From assembly GCF_003018255.1 (NCBI RefSeq), contig NZ_CP027440.1: a stretch of DNA of 64,000 nucleotides, one strand, 5' to 3'. Numbering within the stretch: the first letter of the stretch is position 1; each line of letters begins with the position of its first letter. The translations under genes were made by a program, and so were the position numbers. The stretch is from Escherichia coli. GTDB taxonomy: Bacteria; Pseudomonadota; Gammaproteobacteria; Enterobacterales; Enterobacteriaceae. Below are positions 1-28,758 of the stretch, in pieces. The notes under the pieces are model-generated. The model had not been told where the DNA came from. It worked only from the letters and a program-made list of their open reading frames with translations, and made no database searches.

Positions 1-159
1 AACGCTGCGTCGAGCAGCTGGCGAACTGGCATAAAGAGCTGGAGGAGTATAAGAACGCCTCCCGGATTGATATTAAACCGTCACGGGAATATGCCAGCAC
101 AATCATGAACGCTATCTGGACTGGCGAGCCGAGTGTGATTTACGGCAACGTCCGTAACG
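1..159 (+). pseudogene. melA: melA alpha-galactosidase (GH4), upstream part of reading frame, interrupted by prophage insertion at ~159/160
   Basis: Frame 3 reads ...NAIWTGEPSVIYGNVRN then V-stop inside prophage end; same frame resumes at 39000 as NDGLIDNLPQG...DWLPGWLHR*. Confidence 0.7.
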
Positions 160-1179: not shown

Positions 1180-1380
1180 GGCCGCATAACCTCCTGCTTT
1201 GTTGTTGATGCCTTTCTCATGCAATCGATCGACAAAAACGATCGATTCGATTTGTTTAATTGATACAACAAATAGATTTAAAAGTCATCAACAATGATTC
1301 AGGGCGGTGATTATTTACTTAAAGAAACGAAGAGTTAGGTGGTGAAAACGATCATAAAATGATCATTTTATTGACTTTTT
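1180..1380 (-). promoter_or_regulatory. com-mom upstream regulatory region with clustered Dam (GATC) sites
   Basis: GATC at 1227, 1240, 1350 and 1361; palindrome cGATCAtaaaaTGATCa at 1349-1365; Mu Pmom is known to be controlled by Dam methylation of upstream GATC sites. Confidence 0.5.
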
Positions 1381-1585
1381 ATACAGTGAAGGTAGGATCG
1401 CGCGTATATGTAGTATGTTTCAAATCAACAGGATACTACATAAAAGGGAAACCCAGCATAGCTGGAACTATGCTGGGTCAATCTGTAAAAACTTGCATCA
1501 ATGCTTTACTTCGAGCTCGTGGCGTATCCTATGATATTCCCCGGTCTCCTGTAAAGCAGAGATGCATAAAAAGGAGATCTTTATC

Positions 1586-1756
1586 ATGGATAAAGAGCCT
1601 GTTTGCCCTGCCTGTAAGACTCCCTTACAGCTCATCTATCGCCGTTCTCGATCTCAAAATGGCAAGACATACAAACCAAAAAATGCTTCCTGTTTCAGGA
1701 TGCTGATATGTCCTGCCTGTTCTCCCCGGAGGGAAAATACACAAAACGTGCATTAA
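1586..1756 (+). CDS. Small zinc-ribbon protein (CPxC...CPxC), hypothetical
   Basis: 56-aa ORF MDKEPVCPACKTPL...LICPACS with AAGGAG Shine-Dalgarno 8 nt upstream of ATG; opposite strand to the late operon. Confidence 0.5.
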   Translation: MDKEPVCPACKTPLQLIYRRSRSQNGKTYKPKNASCFRMLICPACSPRRENTQNVH

Positions 1757-2312: not shown

Positions 2313-4361
2313 TTATGCCGCAGGGGTATTAACCTCAAGGACAACGCTCTCAAAAGACACGCCATAAGTTGCCCCTTTGGTGACATCTGTCAGTGTCAGC
2401 GTATCTTTGGCAGGGGAAAGTGCATCTTTCACCATCTGGAATGCCTGGCCCGGAGTGCCATCCAGCACAGGCGTTACCTGGGCACTTCCCGCCGTAAACT
2501 TCAGGACAAGTGTATGCCACTGGTTATTGTAGGCTCCAAATGATCCCAGTTTCGTATTCCCCCCTGTTTTATGGTGCATCAGATTTAACTGGCCGCCTGT
2601 TGTCTGGAGATAATACGCCATCAGGAACGGTGTGCCTGTACCACTCATGGTTACACCTTCCGGGACCGTATCGGTGTGGAGGTAAATACCCAGAGCAAAC
2701 TGGCCTTCTTTTACTTCACCTGACAGACGGAATTTACAGGTCAACTGACCACCATGCTTCAGAAGTTCACCGGCTGCATCAGTTCCATGGGTAAGCGTCC
2801 AGGTTTTTCCGCTTTGTTTGGATACGGTCAACGCTTTACCTTCGTCCGTCAGCTGGATTGTACCATCTGTAATTTTCCAGCCCTGAGCCGGGGCTTCTCC
2901 TGCTGATGCTTTAAGTGAAAGCAGCGTACGGAGTGACGGGGATGTCGGATGGGGGGACTCACTGCCTCCTGGCTGACTACCTGTCGGCGCTTCCGGTTTC
3001 CCACCCGGCGCGGGCTGAGGCAGGGCTTCACCATCAGGGGCCACACCGGCAATAAATGCAGAGGTCAGACCTGCATATTTAAGAATTGCTGATGCAAAAC
3101 GATCTGAGACCAGAAAACGGCGCGCCCAGGAGCTAAAATGGGTTGCCCTGGATGCTGTTGTCCAGTTGCCATCTCCCCGTGATTCCGCACCATAATACCC
3201 GGCAGAAGCGATATCCGGGTCGTGCTCCGGCAGGTTGGTCGCGGTTTTATTACCGAACTCATCGTGCATCAGTGGAACAAAGTGAATGTTCTCGGAAGCC
3301 CGGTTTTTATATCCGCTATAAATGGTTTCATATGCCGCCGGGTTCTTCTCTTTCCAGTCATAGGTTGTGTCACCACATAACCACGGCACACTGTCTGATG
3401 AACCACCAATACACTGACCGGAGAAAGCACCAAGATCCGCACGGAATTTTTTCACCATCGCAGTAAACTGGGCACCATGCTGGGCCGGGGTCGCTTTAAG
3501 GTCTCCTTCCCCCTGAATCCATACGACAGATAACAGCACATTCTTTGGATTCGCCTCAAGTGCCGCTTTAGTTCGACTGACAAGATCCTGATACAGTGGG
3601 GTATCCACTCCCCAGCGTAGTGACGCCTCGGCTGCACCACTTGCCGGATCGAATGAGCCAACTGCGCCGGTTGTAAAAGCAGAGCCGCCACGGGCACAGG
3701 GAACCAGTAAAATCCCGGCATCAGCAGGAATCACCGGTAATACTTTTTTCGCAATATGAAGTCCCTGCCCCACACAACCATACTGCCCTTTTTTCAGGTC
3801 TGCTTTTGGATGGTTCAGCAGACTCATATTCTGAACATCATGAAGGCAGTGATCTGCTGGAATGATTTCATTGTATTTGCAGGGAATACCTCCGGGGGTT
3901 TGTGTATTCCTGCGTGCCAGCTGCATAATACGTGGATCAGGACGATCATAAGAATCCGGAAGGGGCAACCCTTCACCATAAGATGAAGCATTGGACTGGC
4001 CGGCTATAACAATCACGTAATACCAGGAAGGGGAGCTGGAAGCAGTTTCATTTCCTGACGGACGGGTATGTGTTTCAGCATTATCCCAGTCTGACGGTTC
4101 AGCAGTACCGGCAACATCAGCACTTAACGGAATGACCGCACCAATACCCGCTCCGGTAATTTCCACACTCGGATCACCGGATACTGGCCTTACCCACAGG
4201 CAATCCCGTGTATTAAAACTGATGAGACAGTCAGCAAATGTCATTCCTCCTTTTGTTTCGGCCGGAGGAAAGGGAGCCTCAAGAAATGCCGCTGTACCAC
4301 CGGAAACTTTAACAGTAAAGTTTCCGGGCATTGATGATAGTTGAACCCATTTGGACGTCAT
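2313..4361 (-). CDS. SGNH/SASA-family esterase (sialate O-acetylesterase-like) with Pro-rich linker and C-terminal beta-sandwich lectin-like domain; NanS-p-like
   Basis: 682 aa; GQSN nucleophile motif (VIAGQSNASSYG), WIQGEGD block, PQPAPGGKPEAPTGSQPGG linker, Gly/Thr-rich C-terminal domain. Confidence 0.55.
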   Translation of the reverse strand: MTSKWVQLSSMPGNFTVKVSGGTAAFLEAPFPPAETKGGMTFADCLISFNTRDCLWVRPVSGDPSVEITGAGIGAVIPLSADVAGTAEPSDWDNAETHTRPSGNETASSSPSWYYVIVIAGQSNASSYGEGLPLPDSYDRPDPRIMQLARRNTQTPGGIPCKYNEIIPADHCLHDVQNMSLLNHPKADLKKGQYGCVGQGLHIAKKVLPVIPADAGILLVPCARGGSAFTTGAVGSFDPASGAAEASLRWGVDTPLYQDLVSRTKAALEANPKNVLLSVVWIQGEGDLKATPAQHGAQFTAMVKKFRADLGAFSGQCIGGSSDSVPWLCGDTTYDWKEKNPAAYETIYSGYKNRASENIHFVPLMHDEFGNKTATNLPEHDPDIASAGYYGAESRGDGNWTTASRATHFSSWARRFLVSDRFASAILKYAGLTSAFIAGVAPDGEALPQPAPGGKPEAPTGSQPGGSESPHPTSPSLRTLLSLKASAGEAPAQGWKITDGTIQLTDEGKALTVSKQSGKTWTLTHGTDAAGELLKHGGQLTCKFRLSGEVKEGQFALGIYLHTDTVPEGVTMSGTGTPFLMAYYLQTTGGQLNLMHHKTGGNTKLGSFGAYNNQWHTLVLKFTAGSAQVTPVLDGTPGQAFQMVKDALSPAKDTLTLTDVTKGATYGVSFESVVLEVNTPAA

Positions 4362-4460
4362 AATAATCAGCCTGTTCCTGAATAAACTGAATTATCATAT
4401 CCACAGACCGATAAACGCCATTTTGCGTTAATTCAGTAAAGGCCCAACAAAGAGAGCGTC

Positions 4461-5021
4461 TTATTTTTCCGAAACGCTCGCAGGATAATAACGATAAAGG
4501 GTTGAAAGACCGATATCAAAAATAAGTGCCACCTGTCTTCGACTGACACCCCCGGCCAGTAAACGCCCGACCTGCTCGTATTGTTCCTGCGTGAGACGGC
4601 GGGGTCTGCCGCCGGTTCGTCCCCTTTCACGGGCAGCTGCAAGACCAGCCCGTGTCCGTTCGACAATTAATTCACGCTCCATTTCTGCCAGCGCACCCAT
4701 TATGTGAAAAAAGAAACGCCCCATGGGGGTTGACGTATCAATGTTGTCAGTAAGACTACGAAAATTTATCCCCTGTTGCTGTAATTCATCTGTCAGCGCA
4801 ACAAGGTGGCGCATACTGCGCCCCAGCCTGTCCAGTTTCCAGACCATCAGTGTGTCACCGGGTTTTAGTTTCTTCAGTGCCCGCTTCAGTCCCGGCCGCT
4901 GTGTCGTTTTACCACTCATTTTGTCTTCAAAAATCTGCTCACATCCTGCACATTCCAGCGCATTTCTTTGTAAACCGGTGTTCTGGTCATTTGTTGATAC
5001 GCGTATATAGCCAATCAGCAT
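4461..5021 (-). CDS. gin: Gin/Hin/Pin-family serine DNA invertase
   Basis: MLIGYIRVSTNDQNTGLQRNAL...GRFFFHIMGALAEMEREL closely matches Mu Gin. Confidence 0.95.
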   Translation of the reverse strand: MLIGYIRVSTNDQNTGLQRNALECAGCEQIFEDKMSGKTTQRPGLKRALKKLKPGDTLMVWKLDRLGRSMRHLVALTDELQQQGINFRSLTDNIDTSTPMGRFFFHIMGALAEMERELIVERTRAGLAAARERGRTGGRPRRLTQEQYEQVGRLLAGGVSRRQVALIFDIGLSTLYRYYPASVSEK

Positions 5022-5075
5022 GTATTTACCTTCCTTAAAAAGAGGTGAAAATGCCTTTTAAAACAGATATACGGT

Positions 5076-5101
5076 ATCCCTGAAAACCTCGGTTTACGGG
5101 A
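5076..5101. other. gix-like recombination site (gin-proximal)
   Basis: tccctgaaaacc-tc-ggtttacgggaa resembles Mu gix (TTATCCAAAACCTCGGTTTACAGGAA); 28-bp perfect inverted match with 6437-6464. Confidence 0.7.
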
Positions 5102-5471
5102 AACGGTAAATAAGGCTGCTGATGCCCTGCCATCGGGTGGAACCGCCGTGGCAGCAAACAGACTCGCCACCCCAAGAAATATTAATGGCGTTCCTTTTGA
5201 CGGAACGCAGGATATCAACATCACGTCAGGAATGACGCAGTCAACCGCAGATGGCCGGTATGTACAGAATGTTCAGCTTGGAGCACAGAGCTATCATTCA
5301 CCCGGAGGCAATGAAATATCATGGAATTACAGCGCACCTTCCGGTTGTATGCTTTCCGGTATTAACGTGCAGGAAACCGGCTCCCGGTCTGCGGACAATA
5401 TCGGTGGGGTCTATTATCGCCCGGTTCAGATTTATATTAATAATGCCTGGAGAACGGTAAGTTCAGTGTAA
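5091..5471 (+). CDS. Alternative tail-fibre C-terminal segment (Sv'), promoterless, expressed only after inversion
   Basis: Plus-strand frame GLRETVNKAADALPSGGTAVAANRLATPRNINGVPFDGTQDINITSGMTQS... parallels the C-terminus of the tail fibre on the minus strand. Confidence 0.65.
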   Translation, partial: GLRETVNKAADALPSGGTAVAANRLATPRNINGVPFDGTQDINITSGMTQSTADGRYVQNVQLGAQSYHSPGGNEISWNYSAPSGCMLSGINVQETGSRSADNIGGVYYRPVQIYINNAWRTVSSV

Positions 5472-5505
5472 ACCACAGAAAAGGGTGCTGAATGCACCCT
5501 CTGAA

Positions 5506-6138
5506 TTATTCCGGTTTTTCCGGCCAGGGAATCGCCTGGTAATGCCCCTCACTGGCAATATCATTAAAGTGCATTTCTTTAAGCTGTCGGATATACGCCA
5601 TCCAGCGCGTCAGCTGTAATTTATTTTCATCGCTAATCATGTCCAGTTTTAATTCTGTTTTCCAGTCATCCACGGTTTCGTTGGCTTCCTGGAGCAGCGA
5701 TGAGCGACGCTTTTCAGCAACCGTCTTCCAGTTTACCGGCACCTTTGATATCAGGCCATCAGAAAACTGCCAGTTACCGTCAATATTCACACCTTCCGGC
5801 AGTTCGTCCACTTCAACAACAGTAAAACCTGCCGGATATAAAGCAGAGACATCTTCAGCAACAGAGCAGATAATACCCGTTACAGGCGAAATACAGAGTT
5901 TGTATTTCTTTGTGAAAAGCGGGATAGATTCATAAAAATCCCTTCCGTCCTCACTCTGGAAATACTGAACATCCTCACCATAGGGTTTGTGTTCCGGGTA
6001 ATATCGTTTTACGTTAATAAGCTCCATTATTTCACCTTGTTTTTGTTGAAAAGACAAAATCATCATATATTTATTCAGATAATCTGTTTTTTGAACTACT
6101 GCACTTTTATGCGCTGGAAGCTGTTTTCCACGAACCAT
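5506..6138 (-). CDS. Tail fibre assembly chaperone (U/Tfa-like)
   Basis: 210-aa ORF immediately downstream of the tail-fibre variable part, inside the invertible segment. Confidence 0.7.
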   Translation of the reverse strand: MVRGKQLPAHKSAVVQKTDYLNKYMMILSFQQKQGEIMELINVKRYYPEHKPYGEDVQYFQSEDGRDFYESIPLFTKKYKLCISPVTGIICSVAEDVSALYPAGFTVVEVDELPEGVNIDGNWQFSDGLISKVPVNWKTVAEKRRSSLLQEANETVDDWKTELKLDMISDENKLQLTRWMAYIRQLKEMHFNDIASEGHYQAIPWPEKPE

Positions 6139-6994
6139 CTATCAGAAACTGAACAGGTCGATAATATGCGGTTACCGTTGCATTACCATCACCAGCGACA
6201 TCAAGCCCTGTAAGTACGCATCCGTCAGGAACTTCAAAAATATTATATTGCATTCCAATCGTTGACCTTGAACCTCTTCGAATGCTTTGAACATAACGTG
6301 AGTCAGCCACAGACTGCGTCATCCCCGATGTAATATTTATATCCTGCGTTCCGTCAAATGGGACACCATTAATATTTCTTGGAGTGGCGAGTTTATTCGC
6401 TGCAACAGCCGTTCCGTTCGATGGCAGGGCATTCGCCGCCTTATTTACCGTTTCCCGTAAACCGACGTTATCGATAAAAGCGCCTTTATCCGGAATGTCT
6501 GCGCCGTTCTGCTCCCTGCGCAGGTAACGGTTATCACCTTCGCTTTTGCTGTAAACATCCAGATTATTACGGGCGGTTCCCGCATTCTCCAGGTCGGCAA
6601 GGTTCTGATCCTTCGCCAGAGCATTAACGTCACCGGGACCAAGACTGTTTTTTGTGGCAAGCGCCCCAAGACCAAGATAACCACGGGCAAGACGCTGGGC
6701 TTCCGCACCGGCATCAGCAATTTCTTTCAGGTTGTTTTTCCGGGAAAAGGCATTCGCAGCGATAATGGCTTTAATGGACAGCGTAAGCTGGTTTAACTGC
6801 GCCTTATCCGGCTGAATACTGGCTTCAGCCAGAATATTCAGCAGTTCGGCCTGGAGAATATTCAGCCAGTCCTGACCAATCCAGCTGATACCTTTTTGTC
6901 CGTCACCTTCGGTAAACCAGGTGGTGGTATTACTCTGCGCCGGTGCCAGCGCAGGCATATTCGCCACGCCGGAATTATTATCAACATGAAACAT
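6107..6994 (-). CDS. Tail fibre protein S (constant N-terminal part plus invertible C-terminal part)
   Basis: 295 aa; C-terminal ~115 aa lie within the invertible segment; crossover falls at IDNVGLRETVNK. Confidence 0.75.
   Translation of the reverse strand: MFHVDNNSGVANMPALAPAQSNTTTWFTEGDGQKGISWIGQDWLNILQAELLNILAEASIQPDKAQLNQLTLSIKAIIAANAFSRKNNLKEIADAGAEAQRLARGYLGLGALATKNSLGPGDVNALAKDQNLADLENAGTARNNLDVYSKSEGDNRYLRREQNGADIPDKGAFIDNVGLRETVNKAANALPSNGTAVAANKLATPRNINGVPFDGTQDINITSGMTQSVADSRYVQSIRRGSRSTIGMQYNIFEVPDGCVLTGLDVAGDGNATVTAYYRPVQFLIDGSWKTASSA
6451..6475. other. gix-like recombination site (inside tail fibre gene)
   Basis: ttcccgtaaacc-ga-cgttatcgata; inverted partner of 5076-5101. Confidence 0.7.
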
Positions 6995-7554
6995 TAAATA
7001 GTCTCCTCTTCATGGCTGTTTGCATACACGTAAATAAACGTCTGCCATGCAGGCTTATAACGGTTCAGAATACATTCCAGCGCACCGCCTTCATAAATAC
7101 GCAGCGGCGTGAGAATATCATCCAGCACATTCATATTCCGGTAGCCGGTTTCACTGTTAATCGTGACAATACTGACCCACTGTGAATCCGGTGATGGCTG
7201 AATATCTATTTCATAACCAAACTCTGCCGCAAACCGGATATAAAATTCACGGTTAAGAGAGGGTTTCATCCGGTATTTATTCCCGGCATAACGCTGACGC
7301 TCCTGAATGGTTGCGCCGGTCATATCACATTCCGGTAACCCCAGATAACGCTCCCAGTCTTCCAGCAGCAGACGGGATGAATCAGGAAAACGTTCTGCCA
7401 GCATCTGGTTACCGGTCCAGGAAACACGCTCCGTGGAATGACTGAGGCCCAGGCACAAAGCCGCAAGAACGGATGACGGCCGCTTATCCCATGCCAGCCC
7501 GTCAGGCAGCAACTGCAACAGGGCACGCTGATGCGGGGTCAGGGTTACAGCCAT
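6994..7554 (-). CDS. Tail/baseplate protein (Mu gp48-like)
   Basis: Position between baseplate J-like gene and tail fibre. Confidence 0.6.
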   Translation of the reverse strand: MAVTLTPHQRALLQLLPDGLAWDKRPSSVLAALCLGLSHSTERVSWTGNQMLAERFPDSSRLLLEDWERYLGLPECDMTGATIQERQRYAGNKYRMKPSLNREFYIRFAAEFGYEIDIQPSPDSQWVSIVTINSETGYRNMNVLDDILTPLRIYEGGALECILNRYKPAWQTFIYVYANSHEEETI

Positions 7555-19234: not shown

Positions 19235-20358
19235 TATTGCATTTCCTCTTTCATTTTCAGGAACTCGGCTTCGGTTTTACCCAGCAGTTTGGCGGCCGCG
19301 ATATCTTCAGCCGACAGCACAGCGGTGGCAGTCTTTTTATCCGGCACGGTCACGGTGTCGGTCTGAAGGCCGGTCAGGGCCGCAACCGGCTGGCGGGCGT
19401 CAAGCTGTGCAGAAAGTGCCGCAACGCCAATCTGCCCGCCCAGTTGTTCCAGATAGCCGCGTTCGCTTTTGAAGATGCGCCCTTCGGATTCAGCCTTGTC
19501 CAGCACCTGCTCCAGCGTGGTGCTGCCGTGCTGCGCCGACAGCGCAACGTATTCGGTACGCAGGGCGTTATACGTTTCAACGGGCACGTATTTCGTCAGA
19601 TCAATACTGCCGCCAGCCGGTGTGCCTTTTGCGGTTTCCAGCTCTGCCGACAGACTGGCGACCTGTGTTTTCAGGTTGTCGTGTGCATCCGCACGGGTTT
19701 TGATCCCGGTGAGGGCAGACAGCGCCGCCGTGCCCAGCTCCGGCGTAAATTCGTCACCGTCAGCCACGGTCAGACCGAGCGCCGTCAGCAACTGGCGTAA
19801 TTGCTCATTCATGGAGGTATCCTTTAAAGGAGGGTTTAAGGCGTTATAAAGGTCATCCGCCGACAGTGCGGCGACAGGATTCATGCCGGTCAGACCGGGG
19901 TCACCGGTAATAGCCAGCATCCGAAGTTCGACAGGTTCGCCGGTGCTCTCGTCATAGCCAATCACCGGTGAAAACCAGGGGAATTCGTTATTACGCAGAT
20001 GTTCAAGGGCCGGAGGGTTCCACTTCGGGCGCACCTCGAAACCTCGCTCTTCACTGAAGCGAAAATTCTCCGGTGAGGCCATCACAAAACCGGCAGCCGG
20101 TGCCGGATGTCCCTCAATCAGGGTCTGGTGGTTGTAGTCAATTTTCACCGGCTGATTGAGCGCCACAACACGGGAGACCATGCGCTCAACGGCTGCATGG
20201 TTGATCAGCCAGCCCTCGGCCGGTTTTTCCGGGCGACCGTCACGGGCCTTTACCCGACCGGCTGGCATGATCTGACACCAGTCACCGTCCCCGTCTGCGG
20301 ACAGGCTGATGGCATTCAGAATGGCATAAGCAAGTTTGGGCGTGTTTTTCGTCTTCAT
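19234..20358 (-). CDS. Head maturation protease / scaffold (Mu I-like)
   Basis: 374 aa, Ala/Leu-rich coiled-coil C-terminal half typical of scaffold. Confidence 0.8.
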   Translation of the reverse strand: MKTKNTPKLAYAILNAISLSADGDGDWCQIMPAGRVKARDGRPEKPAEGWLINHAAVERMVSRVVALNQPVKIDYNHQTLIEGHPAPAAGFVMASPENFRFSEERGFEVRPKWNPPALEHLRNNEFPWFSPVIGYDESTGEPVELRMLAITGDPGLTGMNPVAALSADDLYNALNPPLKDTSMNEQLRQLLTALGLTVADGDEFTPELGTAALSALTGIKTRADAHDNLKTQVASLSAELETAKGTPAGGSIDLTKYVPVETYNALRTEYVALSAQHGSTTLEQVLDKAESEGRIFKSERGYLEQLGGQIGVAALSAQLDARQPVAALTGLQTDTVTVPDKKTATAVLSAEDIAAAKLLGKTEAEFLKMKEEMQ

Positions 20359-20534
20359 TCCGGCAGCATAGGCCGGGAATTTTCAGGGCGGGTTTTGCGG
20401 GATTTCAGGAAGTGCTTCCAGGGGAAAAATACAAAGGCGCTTCACGCAGATTTTAAAGCCCGTTAAATACAGGTTAGAAAATCACGACACGCGCCTGAAG
20501 GGGGTAAGGTAATGCATTTGCATACCTTAAACAA
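20359..20534 (-). promoter_or_regulatory. Intergenic region upstream of I-like gene, candidate late promoter/terminator
   Basis: 176-bp gap in an otherwise packed operon; near-palindrome aaggtaatgcatttgcataccttaa at ~20497-20526. Confidence 0.3.
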
Positions 20535-21008
20535 TTAAGGCGTTTCTGTGGCCTTTTTAAAGCGTTTTCTGATTTCGTCCATGATCTCCTGCTCTGCCAC
20601 CTGATCAAAGCCCATATACGGACGTGCACCAATGGCCGCCGGTCCCGGCGGCATACCTGGCAGGCCACCCCACTGATGAATGGCCGCATAAGGCTCATTT
20701 GATCCAATCAGCGCCCAGGTGTCGCCATAATCCGTGGTCAGGCGTCGGGCCAGATCGCCGTTCAGCGTCAGGATTTTGCCGGGCATGTATCCCTTACGGG
20801 TACGCCACTTGCGGTAAGGATCTGACCAGTCATGCCAGCGTTCGCCGTCCGGCTCTTTTTCCTGTTCAAACGCCATTTCTGACGATGACAGAAGGCTGGA
20901 CGCCACACTGCGGGCCAGGTCTTTTCCGCCACCCACAAACTGAAGCCGGGCAAAGACCCGCTGGAGACGCGTAACGTCAACAACGACGGCGGCATCAATG
21001 GATGACAT
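20535..21008 (-). CDS. Virion morphogenesis protein (Mu G-like)
   Basis: 157 aa, position. Confidence 0.7.
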   Translation of the reverse strand: MSSIDAAVVVDVTRLQRVFARLQFVGGGKDLARSVASSLLSSSEMAFEQEKEPDGERWHDWSDPYRKWRTRKGYMPGKILTLNGDLARRLTTDYGDTWALIGSNEPYAAIHQWGGLPGMPPGPAAIGARPYMGFDQVAEQEIMDEIRKRFKKATETP

Positions 21009-21129
21009 ATTGCCTCCGTATAAAATATGAATATAAAATAAGCAGGCGGTCAGTGTACGCTTAACTGGTAAAGTCGGTGCCTGCCTCCGGGTGGATCATG
21101 TATGCGGGTTCGACCCCCGCCACTGACCG

Positions 21130-22461
21130 TTAATCAATATCTCCTTCCAGTACCTCAAGCATTCCGCCCCGGATATCCGATTTCAGCTTATCCATATTGA
21201 TAACCCGGTAAGCATTAACAATCACATCCAGTTTATCCGGCTGACGCTTCAGGCTGTACGGTGCATTAACGGCAATCTGCACACTGCCATCCTGATTTTC
21301 CACGATATACATCAGATTGTTGTGCCGTTTGTCCCACAGTACCGCTTTTGGCCTTGCCAGCATTGCCGGTAAGCGCCCGAAATCCTCCGGTGTCAGGGCG
21401 ATACCGTCATTCTGATGTTTCATGCTGTCCGCATGGAGCACATTTTTACCGCTCATCGCCAGCAGGCGGGCCGGTGGCGTTCCCGTCCGGCTTTCCACCG
21501 CCTGCGCAATGCTTTCGGTCATAAAGCCCAGCGTGCGGATATCGTTACCGCCTCGCCGGGTTTTCATGATGTTTTTTGCCCAGATGCGGAACGCCAGCTG
21601 CCGCTCCGGGCTGTTGTTCATCTCCTGAACCACCATTTCCCGTAACGCCGGGCTTTTCACCTCGATCAACTTGCGGAGCAGCGCCTGGTCTGTGCCGAAC
21701 GCCGCCGAACCGGGGTTATATGACCAGCCCACATCCGGTGTCATGGTTCTGGTGCCATCTGAATATGTGGTCACCGGCATTTCTCTGACTTCTCCGGTCT
21801 GCTTATCCACGCCAGCCTCAACATTGCGGGTGGAAAGATGATCCTGACCGGATGAAACGGATAACCCCATTGCATCCAGACGGGTCTGAGACAATGGCCG
21901 GACACGGCAGCGGCAGTTCCAGCCATTGGGTGGGTAGTGTGTATTCCAGAACGGATCGTCATAGCGGAATACCAGACCGTTAAGGGCGGAATGCGCCGGG
22001 CGGGTGCGGCTGTCCATCACCGCCACATACTGCCAGAACGGATGCGTGTCCGTGTTGTTCATCATCTGCGTGTAACGCCCGGCATTGTAAGCCACGCGGG
22101 TGTTCACGTTGTAAATCAGCGCCAGACGGCGGGGACAGCCCAGCTGCACTTCTTCTGCGTTACCGGCGCTGTCCACCACAATCTGCTTTCCCCACCATCC
22201 CAGCTTTTGCAGGCGGGGGGTCAGTGTGCGGATAAATGCTTTCTGTGAAATCCCCTCATCAATGGCCCGTTGCACTTCCGCCTGTAGTGTGGTCAGTACG
22301 TCCAGGCGTGCCACTTTTGCCGCCGTGAACGAACGGGCATGAACATCCGCGTCTGTTTCGAACCAGTTCCAGCTGATATGCGCCCCTTTGGCGCGGAAGT
22401 ATGCCACCGCCTCTTTTGAGGGAAGCGTGGCGGCATAACCTAAATCAATCCCCTGTGCCAT
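21130..22461 (-). CDS. Minor head protein (Mu F-like)
   Basis: 443 aa downstream of portal. Confidence 0.8.
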   Translation of the reverse strand: MAQGIDLGYAATLPSKEAVAYFRAKGAHISWNWFETDADVHARSFTAAKVARLDVLTTLQAEVQRAIDEGISQKAFIRTLTPRLQKLGWWGKQIVVDSAGNAEEVQLGCPRRLALIYNVNTRVAYNAGRYTQMMNNTDTHPFWQYVAVMDSRTRPAHSALNGLVFRYDDPFWNTHYPPNGWNCRCRVRPLSQTRLDAMGLSVSSGQDHLSTRNVEAGVDKQTGEVREMPVTTYSDGTRTMTPDVGWSYNPGSAAFGTDQALLRKLIEVKSPALREMVVQEMNNSPERQLAFRIWAKNIMKTRRGGNDIRTLGFMTESIAQAVESRTGTPPARLLAMSGKNVLHADSMKHQNDGIALTPEDFGRLPAMLARPKAVLWDKRHNNLMYIVENQDGSVQIAVNAPYSLKRQPDKLDVIVNAYRVINMDKLKSDIRGGMLEVLEGDID

Positions 22462-28300: not shown

Positions 28301-28332
28301 GGTGAAGGAGAGGCGGCAGGCTTTGCGGAATA

Positions 28333-28758
28333 TCAGAAAAGTGGCGGTTGCGTTCTTGCCAGATGCAGACGGCGCTGTTCGCGTATGACGGTATAAATCT
28401 GGGTTTCTGACATCCGGTAATGGCGGCGAAGGGATTCAATTTTCTCGCCCCGGTCCCAGCGCGAAAATATCTCATTGTTTCGCAGCTCGGCAAAGAGAGA
28501 TTCCCCGACCGGCAGGTAATAACCCCGTCCGCCCATATAGGCTGCCTGAGCCGCAGCCACCTTGCGTGCCAGTTTACCGGCCAGTACCGGCTCAATCCCC
28601 TGACGCTGAAGTTCTGCGCCGGTGACTTCAACCAGTTCTGACAGGGTCCGCGGCCAGTTCTTTTTGAGAACATCATCAGGGATGTCATCAAGGCGGTCGA
28701 TAAGGGCGTGCAGTTGCTCACTGTCACCACCAAACATGCTCATCTGAGTTTCTGCCAT
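28333..28758 (-). CDS. Mor/C-family transcriptional activator
   Basis: 141 aa with C-terminal HTH; resembles Mu Mor. Confidence 0.8.
   Translation of the reverse strand: MAETQMSMFGGDSEQLHALIDRLDDIPDDVLKKNWPRTLSELVEVTGAELQRQGIEPVLAGKLARKVAAAQAAYMGGRGYYLPVGESLFAELRNNEIFSRWDRGEKIESLRRHYRMSETQIYTVIREQRRLHLARTQPPLF

Follow-up and report, generated by a model that had tools for sequence, protein, structure and literature searches.

How does a tail-fibre switch with two alternative tips work when its invertible segment holds the gene for a single fibre chaperone? This question is raised by a Mu-like prophage that makes up the first 39 kb of a 64-kb window of Escherichia coli DNA (contig NZ_CP027440.1; 'the window' denotes this whole stretch of 64,000 nucleotides) and is inserted between the E. 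coli genes gabP and gabT. The prophage is a member of the Mu-like family of Sp18 from O157:H7 Sakai, and its tail-fibre gene runs into an invertible segment of 1,373 bp (5091-6463, between the crossover cores) that carries two tips and one tail-fibre assembly gene, tfa. The segment is almost certainly a working DNA-inversion switch, and the explanation that we favour for the locus as a whole, with reasonable rather than high confidence, is a host-range switch of the Sp18 type in which one Tfa attends both tips. The argument relies on the following features.

4461..5021, minus strand: gene for a gin-like small serine DNA invertase of 186 amino acids, annotated in RefSeq as 'recombinase family protein'
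5077..5102, unstranded: left gix-like crossover site, TCCCTGAAAACC TC GGTTTACGGGAA, with its core TC at 5089-5090
5082-5266 (left) and 6288-6472 (right), unstranded: arms of a long inverted repeat, 185 nucleotides and 81% complementary, containing a 28-bp exact match
5091..5471, plus strand: Sv', the alternative tip, 126 amino acids and a stop codon, lacking both a start codon and a promoter
5480..5502, unstranded: G+C-rich hairpin, a probable terminator, lying between the stop codons of Sv' and tfa where these two frames converge
5506..6027, minus strand: tfa, the tail-fibre assembly chaperone gene, 173 amino acids, with its own Shine-Dalgarno sequence AAGGTGA (RefSeq WP_000420351.1)
6028..6106, minus strand: A+T-rich untranslated spacer of 79 nucleotides from the Sv stop to the tfa start, a putative promoter region
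6107..6463, minus strand: Sv, the tip expressed in the window orientation, 118 amino acids and a stop codon, part of the 295-amino-acid open reading frame 6107-6994
6452..6477, unstranded: right gix-like crossover site, TTCCCGTAAACC GA CGTTATCGATAA, with its core GA at 6464-6465
6466..6994, minus strand: Sc, the constant N-terminal part of the fibre, 177 amino acids, outside the invertible segment

The invertase, whose gene adjoins the invertible segment, is 75% identical to Mu Gin over 181 amino acids without a gap, matches PHROG 125 'DNA invertase' (E=6e-95) and has the N-terminal motif YxRVSTxDQ, here YIRVSTNDQ, which contains Ser9. Inverted gix-like sites with a 28-bp perfect match, as claimed by the original prediction for this DNA, are present: the longest exact inverted match, TCGGTTTACGGGAAACGGTAAATAAGGC (5089-5116 and 6438-6465), is far beyond chance within about 1.5 kb (roughly 10^6 pairings x 4^-28), and its two copies correspond to the inner halves of two 26-bp gix-like sites, which are inverted and have the same 2-bp core. 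Compared with the Mu gix sequence TTATCCAAAACC TC GGTTTACAGGAA, the left site matches at about 20 of 26 positions and the reverse complement of the right site at about 22 of 26, as counted on the sequences, and the inner half-site GGTTTACGGGAA equals Mu GGTTTACAGGAA at 11 of 12 positions. The crossover point falls in the fibre frame where it does in Mu (NVGLRETVN here, NLGLQETVN in Mu), and the longer repeat arms encode the conserved N-terminal stretch of both tips, GLRETVNKAA...NINGVPFDGTQDINITSG. Gin and Hin systems depend in cis on a Fis-bound recombinational enhancer inside the 5' part of the invertase gene. A single degenerate Fis consensus match occurs in the gin-like gene at position 71, as in Mu gin, with no second match at the expected spacing in either gene, and nucleotide identity to Mu gin around this match is 73-87%.

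On the fibre side, residues 1-198 align to residues 1-191 of Mu S (PDB 5YVQ_A, E=8e-52) and residues 230-295, the C-terminal end of Sv, to the extreme Mu S tip (436-504); judged by these alignments, the window fibre is a shortened Mu S homologue. In the window state Sv' is silent because its frame is closed upstream by a TGA at 5046-5048, just outside the segment, and lacks a start codon, the earliest one lying not before 5148. When 5091-6463 was inverted in silico, Sc and Sv' joined in frame to give a fibre of 303 amino acids, against the present 295. Sv' matches the tail fibres of PHROG 1833 (E=6e-58), and its tip domain matches PDB 9CUY_c (E=5e-16) as well as Mu S residues 434-503; the two tips are 59% identical to each other, with N- and C-terminal flanks conserved between them. 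The anatomy that had been described from the letters alone, about 1.4 kb with a minus-strand tip, one minus-strand tfa and a promoterless plus-strand tip, thus stands, as do the in-frame fusion, with which the RefSeq annotation of flipped genomes agrees, and the observations that the segment is more compact than the Mu G segment and that Sv' has no co-oriented tfa.

Both states occur in nature. Among complete E. coli genomes in which at least 80% of a 2.6-kb query (window 4400-7000) was covered, 25 have the window orientation and 182 match the version flipped in silico, so that the possibility, raised with the prediction, of a single observed orientation does not hold; each set includes copies 100% identical to its query. 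In the IMG/VR prophage set, about 6 copies are co-oriented and about 14 flipped. Two strains, Z869 (H7/H48) and 8479 (H6/H52), have two copies each, one per orientation. The flipped copy of strain 8479 is on a separate record of 166,865 bp. RefSeq annotates the flipped genome CP027573 with the 303-amino-acid fibre as a 912-bp coding sequence, the same Tfa accession on the opposite strand and a silent Sv fragment; WP_000420351.1 is identical in genomes of either orientation. By this comparative evidence from genomes, the segment inverts in nature. An assembly gives the majority orientation of a culture, and the 88% share of flipped copies may reflect either a moderate equilibrium bias or clonal sampling.

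We propose that the Gin-like invertase would recombine the inverted gix sites at their 2-bp cores and flip the 1,373 bp between them, so that Sc would be fused in frame to Sv in the window state or to Sv' in the flipped state; virions would then carry one of two receptor-binding tips, which would amount to a host-range switch. The single Tfa would act as chaperone for both tips, whether its gene lies downstream in the same orientation or convergent to the fibre gene. In the window state tfa would be readable from the late operon transcript, while in the flipped state it would presumably form a transcription unit of its own, perhaps started from the long spacer upstream of it, and the hairpin at 5480-5502 would keep the convergent transcripts of Sv' and tfa apart. 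Tfa matches PHROG 136 'tail fiber assembly protein' along its whole length (residues 1-173, E=1e-57) and is homologous to Mu U (PDB 5YVQ_B, residues 17-147, E=2e-15); its N-terminal half, the fibre-binding domain according to the Mu structure (review PMC9608196), is the most conserved part across all classes. A search by tblastn with the window Tfa, Mu U and Mu U' for a second tfa, which the original prediction had named as the alternative, returned none in the 64-kb window. That one Tfa serves both states is, on the comparative evidence that follows, likely.

The single tfa is a family trait and not an accident of the window copy. In a survey of E. coli genomes at 82-100% nucleotide identity together with 80 IMG/VR loci, every invertase-bearing relative examined had a single tfa, in the order Sc - tip - tfa - tip' - gin - DUF6645. 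Three types of tip cassette occur at the tfa-linked position, one of them clearly Mu-S-like, and two at the convergent position, almost all of them intact, and two tfa alleles (65% identical in nucleotides) are found in mixed combinations with the three Sv and two Sv' types, which argues against a strict pairing of tip and chaperone. In non-invertible relatives a homologous Tfa (54-59% identical) is encoded 11-14 nucleotides downstream of the fibre gene, and the tips that precede it there are 61-71% identical to Sv' and 35-38% to Sv, indicating that Sv' is the type normally accompanied by this Tfa family. These tips do not support the implied reading of tfa as the cognate of Sv, with Sv' as an orphan. 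In species-representative genomes, scans yielded no locus with Tfa and one with the Tfa alignment; in that collection the Tfa family is not widespread beyond E. coli and closely related bacteria.

A further line of evidence comes from a lineage that can no longer invert. Eleven loci, seven IMG/VR contigs and those of E. coli M3, CI5, M18 and JE86-ST02, have no gin and one tip each, and they share one common deletion junction (3837-3877 in locus L015; also L016-L020, L024 and L089-L092). The deletion spans from about 47 nucleotides inside the gin 3' end to near the end of Sv, removing gin, the left gix site and most of Sv, and has frozen the flipped state: tfa points towards the fibre gene and away from the DUF6645 gene, and either Sv' type may be carried. 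In this lineage tfa is always full length and is under purifying selection, with a ratio of non-synonymous to synonymous substitution rates (dN/dS) of 0.10-0.23, with dS reaching 0.43; invertible relatives have values in this range too. The late region of M3, the one locked prophage examined in this respect, has annotated morphogenesis genes without pseudogene flags. Four locked prophages interrupt four host loci, flgL, a xanthine dehydrogenase gene, citF and hsdR, and these different insertion sites imply that the lineage spread after the deletion. Because a phage of the Mu type gets to a new site by infecting and transposing, particles with an Sc-Sv' fibre and a convergent tfa are implied to be infectious. 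The flipped state, whose logic had been left unexplained, is one in which convergent tfa is the majority arrangement among assemblies and in which a locked lineage has kept tfa at four sites.

Some of the anatomy is consistent with a separate transcription of tfa in that state. The spacer before tfa, about 51, 79 or 120 nucleotides long within the family, is long only here, the corresponding distance being 2 nucleotides in Mu, nil in the Mu-like prophage of enteropathogenic E. coli (EPEC) E2348/69 and 11-17 nucleotides in non-invertible relatives. Its proximal 55 or so nucleotides have just 5 variable positions among nine sequences; between the lineages compared for the spacer, third-codon positions of tfa differ by 17-21%. 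The hairpin is a terminator-like site on the minus strand, with a folding energy of -17.8 kcal/mol (z -3.3) on that strand and -15.4 kcal/mol (z -2.7) on the plus strand; its position is conserved and its sequence is not, a different hairpin lying at the same place in L015. We place a tfa promoter in the spacer only tentatively.

Several observations weigh against the idea of a shared Tfa with its own transcription unit. On the tfa strand, a sigma-70 scan gave no site of at least 9/12 in the window spacer or Sv. The late promoter motif of the phage itself, TGAWATYCCGCAAARCCYGCC-N16-TAYGCT, derived from the sequences that precede the lysis and protease operons, is absent near tfa and occurs at its two known places only. 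Part of the long spacer is the scar of earlier tip cassettes, and a long spacer is therefore, by itself, poor evidence of a promoter. The only hit of the sigma-70 scans upstream of tfa belongs to the locked lineage, whose best promoter-like site, ATGATA-17-TATAAT, spans the deletion junction about 124 nucleotides upstream of tfa; its TATAAT is conserved in 11/11 locked loci, and tfa may have required a fresh promoter in this lineage. Finally, the purifying selection seen in that lineage could stem partly from recombination with invertible relatives. The same sigma-70 scan upstream of tfa in locus L021 likewise gave no site of at least 9/12, and the late promoter C box of Mu (TTAT-N6-ATAA), sought upstream of tfa, had no convincing match.

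The phage late motif is unlike the Mu C box, and its two matches in the window stand against 0.01 expected by chance; judged from sequence and position, the copies are probably activator-dependent late promoters of the phage.

28315-28335 and 20387-20407, minus strand: shared 21-nucleotide motif TGAWATYCCGCAAARCCYGCC, with TAYGCT 16 nucleotides on, upstream of the lysozyme and head protease genes

The copy at 28315-28335 lies just after a gene for a Mor/C-family activator (28333-28758). As for the scar, five relatives with a 120-nucleotide spacer and a Mu-S-like Sv (L004, L005, L013, L023 and L026) contain in that spacer, out of frame, the remains of the end of a different tip type, GSWRTAGSA*, left by replacement of the tip cassette through recombination. 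Truncation of Sv in these relatives was considered and rejected: they possess an entire Sv tip of the Mu-S-like type, and what lengthens the spacer is the remnant of the older tip end.

A flipped tfa that lies antisense to the late operon, and for which no promoter was found, can also be read as silent, with an Sv' tip that works without Tfa and an inversion that toggles both the tip and its Tfa cap; Mu Tfa remains on the mature fibre tip (PMC9608196), and its presence or absence could change receptor recognition. Such a chaperone-free second state is nevertheless improbable. In non-invertible relatives Sv'-type tips directly precede a co-transcribed Tfa of the same family, which argues that they need it, and the intact tfa of the locked lineage, with its low dN/dS, would be unexpected in a gene that is not used. 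A softer form of the same thought, in which inversion also sets whether or how much Tfa is made and so yields Tfa-capped fibres on one side and uncapped or under-chaperoned ones, with different receptor behaviour, on the other, is likewise unlikely; if Tfa supply were toggled in this way, the locus would be a two-layer host-range switch of a kind not described for Mu, P1 or e14.

The chaperone of the flipped state might instead come in trans, from the Tfa of other resident prophages rather than from the tfa of the segment. Shiga-toxin-producing E. coli (STEC) hosts have many lambdoid prophages with many tfa genes, and Tfa proteins, according to what North and colleagues are said to have reported in 2019, fold diverse fibres. 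We regard this supply as very unlikely, as it leaves unexplained both the purifying selection on the convergent tfa of the locked lineage and the conservation of an N-terminal domain that is particular to this Tfa family. It may also tell against such a supply that hosts of the locked lineage include strains that are not STEC, among them the mouse isolates M1, M3 and M18 and the human isolate CI5. Least probable of all is an ON/OFF switch or decaying remnant, in which the flipped tip would be misfolded or absent, the phase non-infectious and a second chaperone gene lost: canonical Mu and the E2348/69 Mu-like prophage do have two chaperones, and the compact layout can be read as a deletion product, but among complete genomes the flipped state predominates, nearly all loci keep an intact and conserved Sv', maintained as two types, the single-tfa layout is common to every family member at the identities surveyed, and locked-flipped prophages sit at four insertion sites, with the M3 late genes free of pseudogene flags. 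We therefore return to one shared chaperone in both states, whatever the orientation of tfa, which is the simplest logic and the most likely.

The element itself is very common in STEC, and the 2.6-kb query region is 100% identical to E. coli O111:H11 strain 88.0502 and further STEC. The prophage flanks lie at window 1-150 and from 39365 onward. Relatives are found at many other insertion sites, for example in the sorbose operon and at prpD-prpE (PMC7430833), as expected because the phage is transposable. The minus-strand late genes follow in the order baseplate genes, a YmfQ/gp48-like wedge gene, tail fibre, tfa and the Gin-like invertase, and after the invertase come the DUF6645/SASA protein, DUF1378, DUF826, com and mom. 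The neighbouring features are listed here.

6994-7554, minus strand: YmfQ / Mu gp48-like baseplate wedge gene, with Sc directly after it
2313-4361, minus strand: DUF6645/SASA gene, 682 amino acids, directly downstream of gin, with a SASA carbohydrate-esterase domain at residues 116-312 and DUF6645 at 534-644
1294-1756, plus strand: frameshifted open reading frame between com and the DUF826 gene, on the opposite strand to them
21049-21128, plus strand: 'tRNA-OTHER' annotated by RefSeq in an identical genome, and at the equivalent place in strain M3

The DUF6645/SASA gene was found in every invertible and locked relative, and its product may act as a surface-sugar esterase on the virion or as another host-range factor. 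Apart from the frameshifted reading frame, the late or right end of the prophage has no gene on the plus strand; relatives have different small reading frames in its place. The 'tRNA-OTHER' annotation is unsupported, as ARAGORN detected no tRNA or tmRNA in 20000-22000.

Taken at the level of mechanism, the locus is a modest new form of the known Gin-type switch and is not surprising. It suggests that a single chaperone is enough for the two tips of a Gin-type host-range switch, even with the chaperone gene convergent to the fibre gene in one state. If confirmed, this would make the Tfa family a naturally promiscuous chaperone (two alleles, five tip types), useful for engineered tip swaps on Mu- or P2-like phages and tailocins. 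For annotation it carries a warning that a 'missing' second tfa does not equal a dead switch state. The tips and the flipping state matter for the range of strains open to this transposable phage, and the interest is mainly for specialists in phage tail fibres and for engineers.

Of known systems, the closest are Sp18 and its STEC relatives. They and the window prophage form one element family, and copies in O157:H7, O111 and other STEC genomes show 99-100% identity to the window segment. An invertible host-specificity region of Sp18, with genes unlike those of Mu, was already stated by Asadulghani et al. 2009 (PMC2669165), a paper that does not contain the single-chaperone layout, orientation statistics or the gin-less locked lineage. 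No description of a single shared chaperone, a convergent majority state or a locked lineage was found in the searchable literature. Carotovoricin Er is a Pectobacterium tailocin, unrelated in sequence to the window element, and its invertible segment of roughly 790 bp is not known to hold a chaperone gene. In this tailocin a compact inversion (Ein; Nguyen et al. 2001) swaps the fibre C-terminus alone and alters the target range (summarised in PMC13195805).

The e14 P segment and others of the Pin type, including that of the EPEC E2348/69 Mu-like prophage, are likewise invertible fibre-tip switches of E. coli prophages, but they use another crossover sequence (AAACCTTGGTTTGGGAGAA) and have two convergent tfa genes, each abutting its own tip. 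Flipping within a culture has been shown by sequencing for the E2348/69 Mu-like prophage (Goldberg et al. 2014, PMC4272514); we rejected this 'Mu' inversion as direct evidence for the window segment, its segment being of the different, two-chaperone Pin type.

The Mu G segment (Sc + Sv-U | U'-Sv') shares with the window the serine invertase, at 75% identity, and near-identical gix sites at the same point of the fibre; it likewise has a constant Sc outside and alternative start-less tips inside, and its S and U are homologues of the window fibre and Tfa. The window segment differs in being 1.37 kb rather than about 3.06 kb, in having tips of 118-126 rather than about 320-335 amino acids, and in having one tfa, 79 nucleotides from Sv, where Mu has two at a gap of 2 nucleotides. 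Also, about 3.4 kb of extra genes (DUF6645/SASA, DUF1378 and DUF826) lie between gin and com-mom, whereas gin of Mu abuts com-mom. The Mu-type rule of a co-oriented, adjacent tfa for each tip (S-U, S'-U') is thus broken in the window segment.

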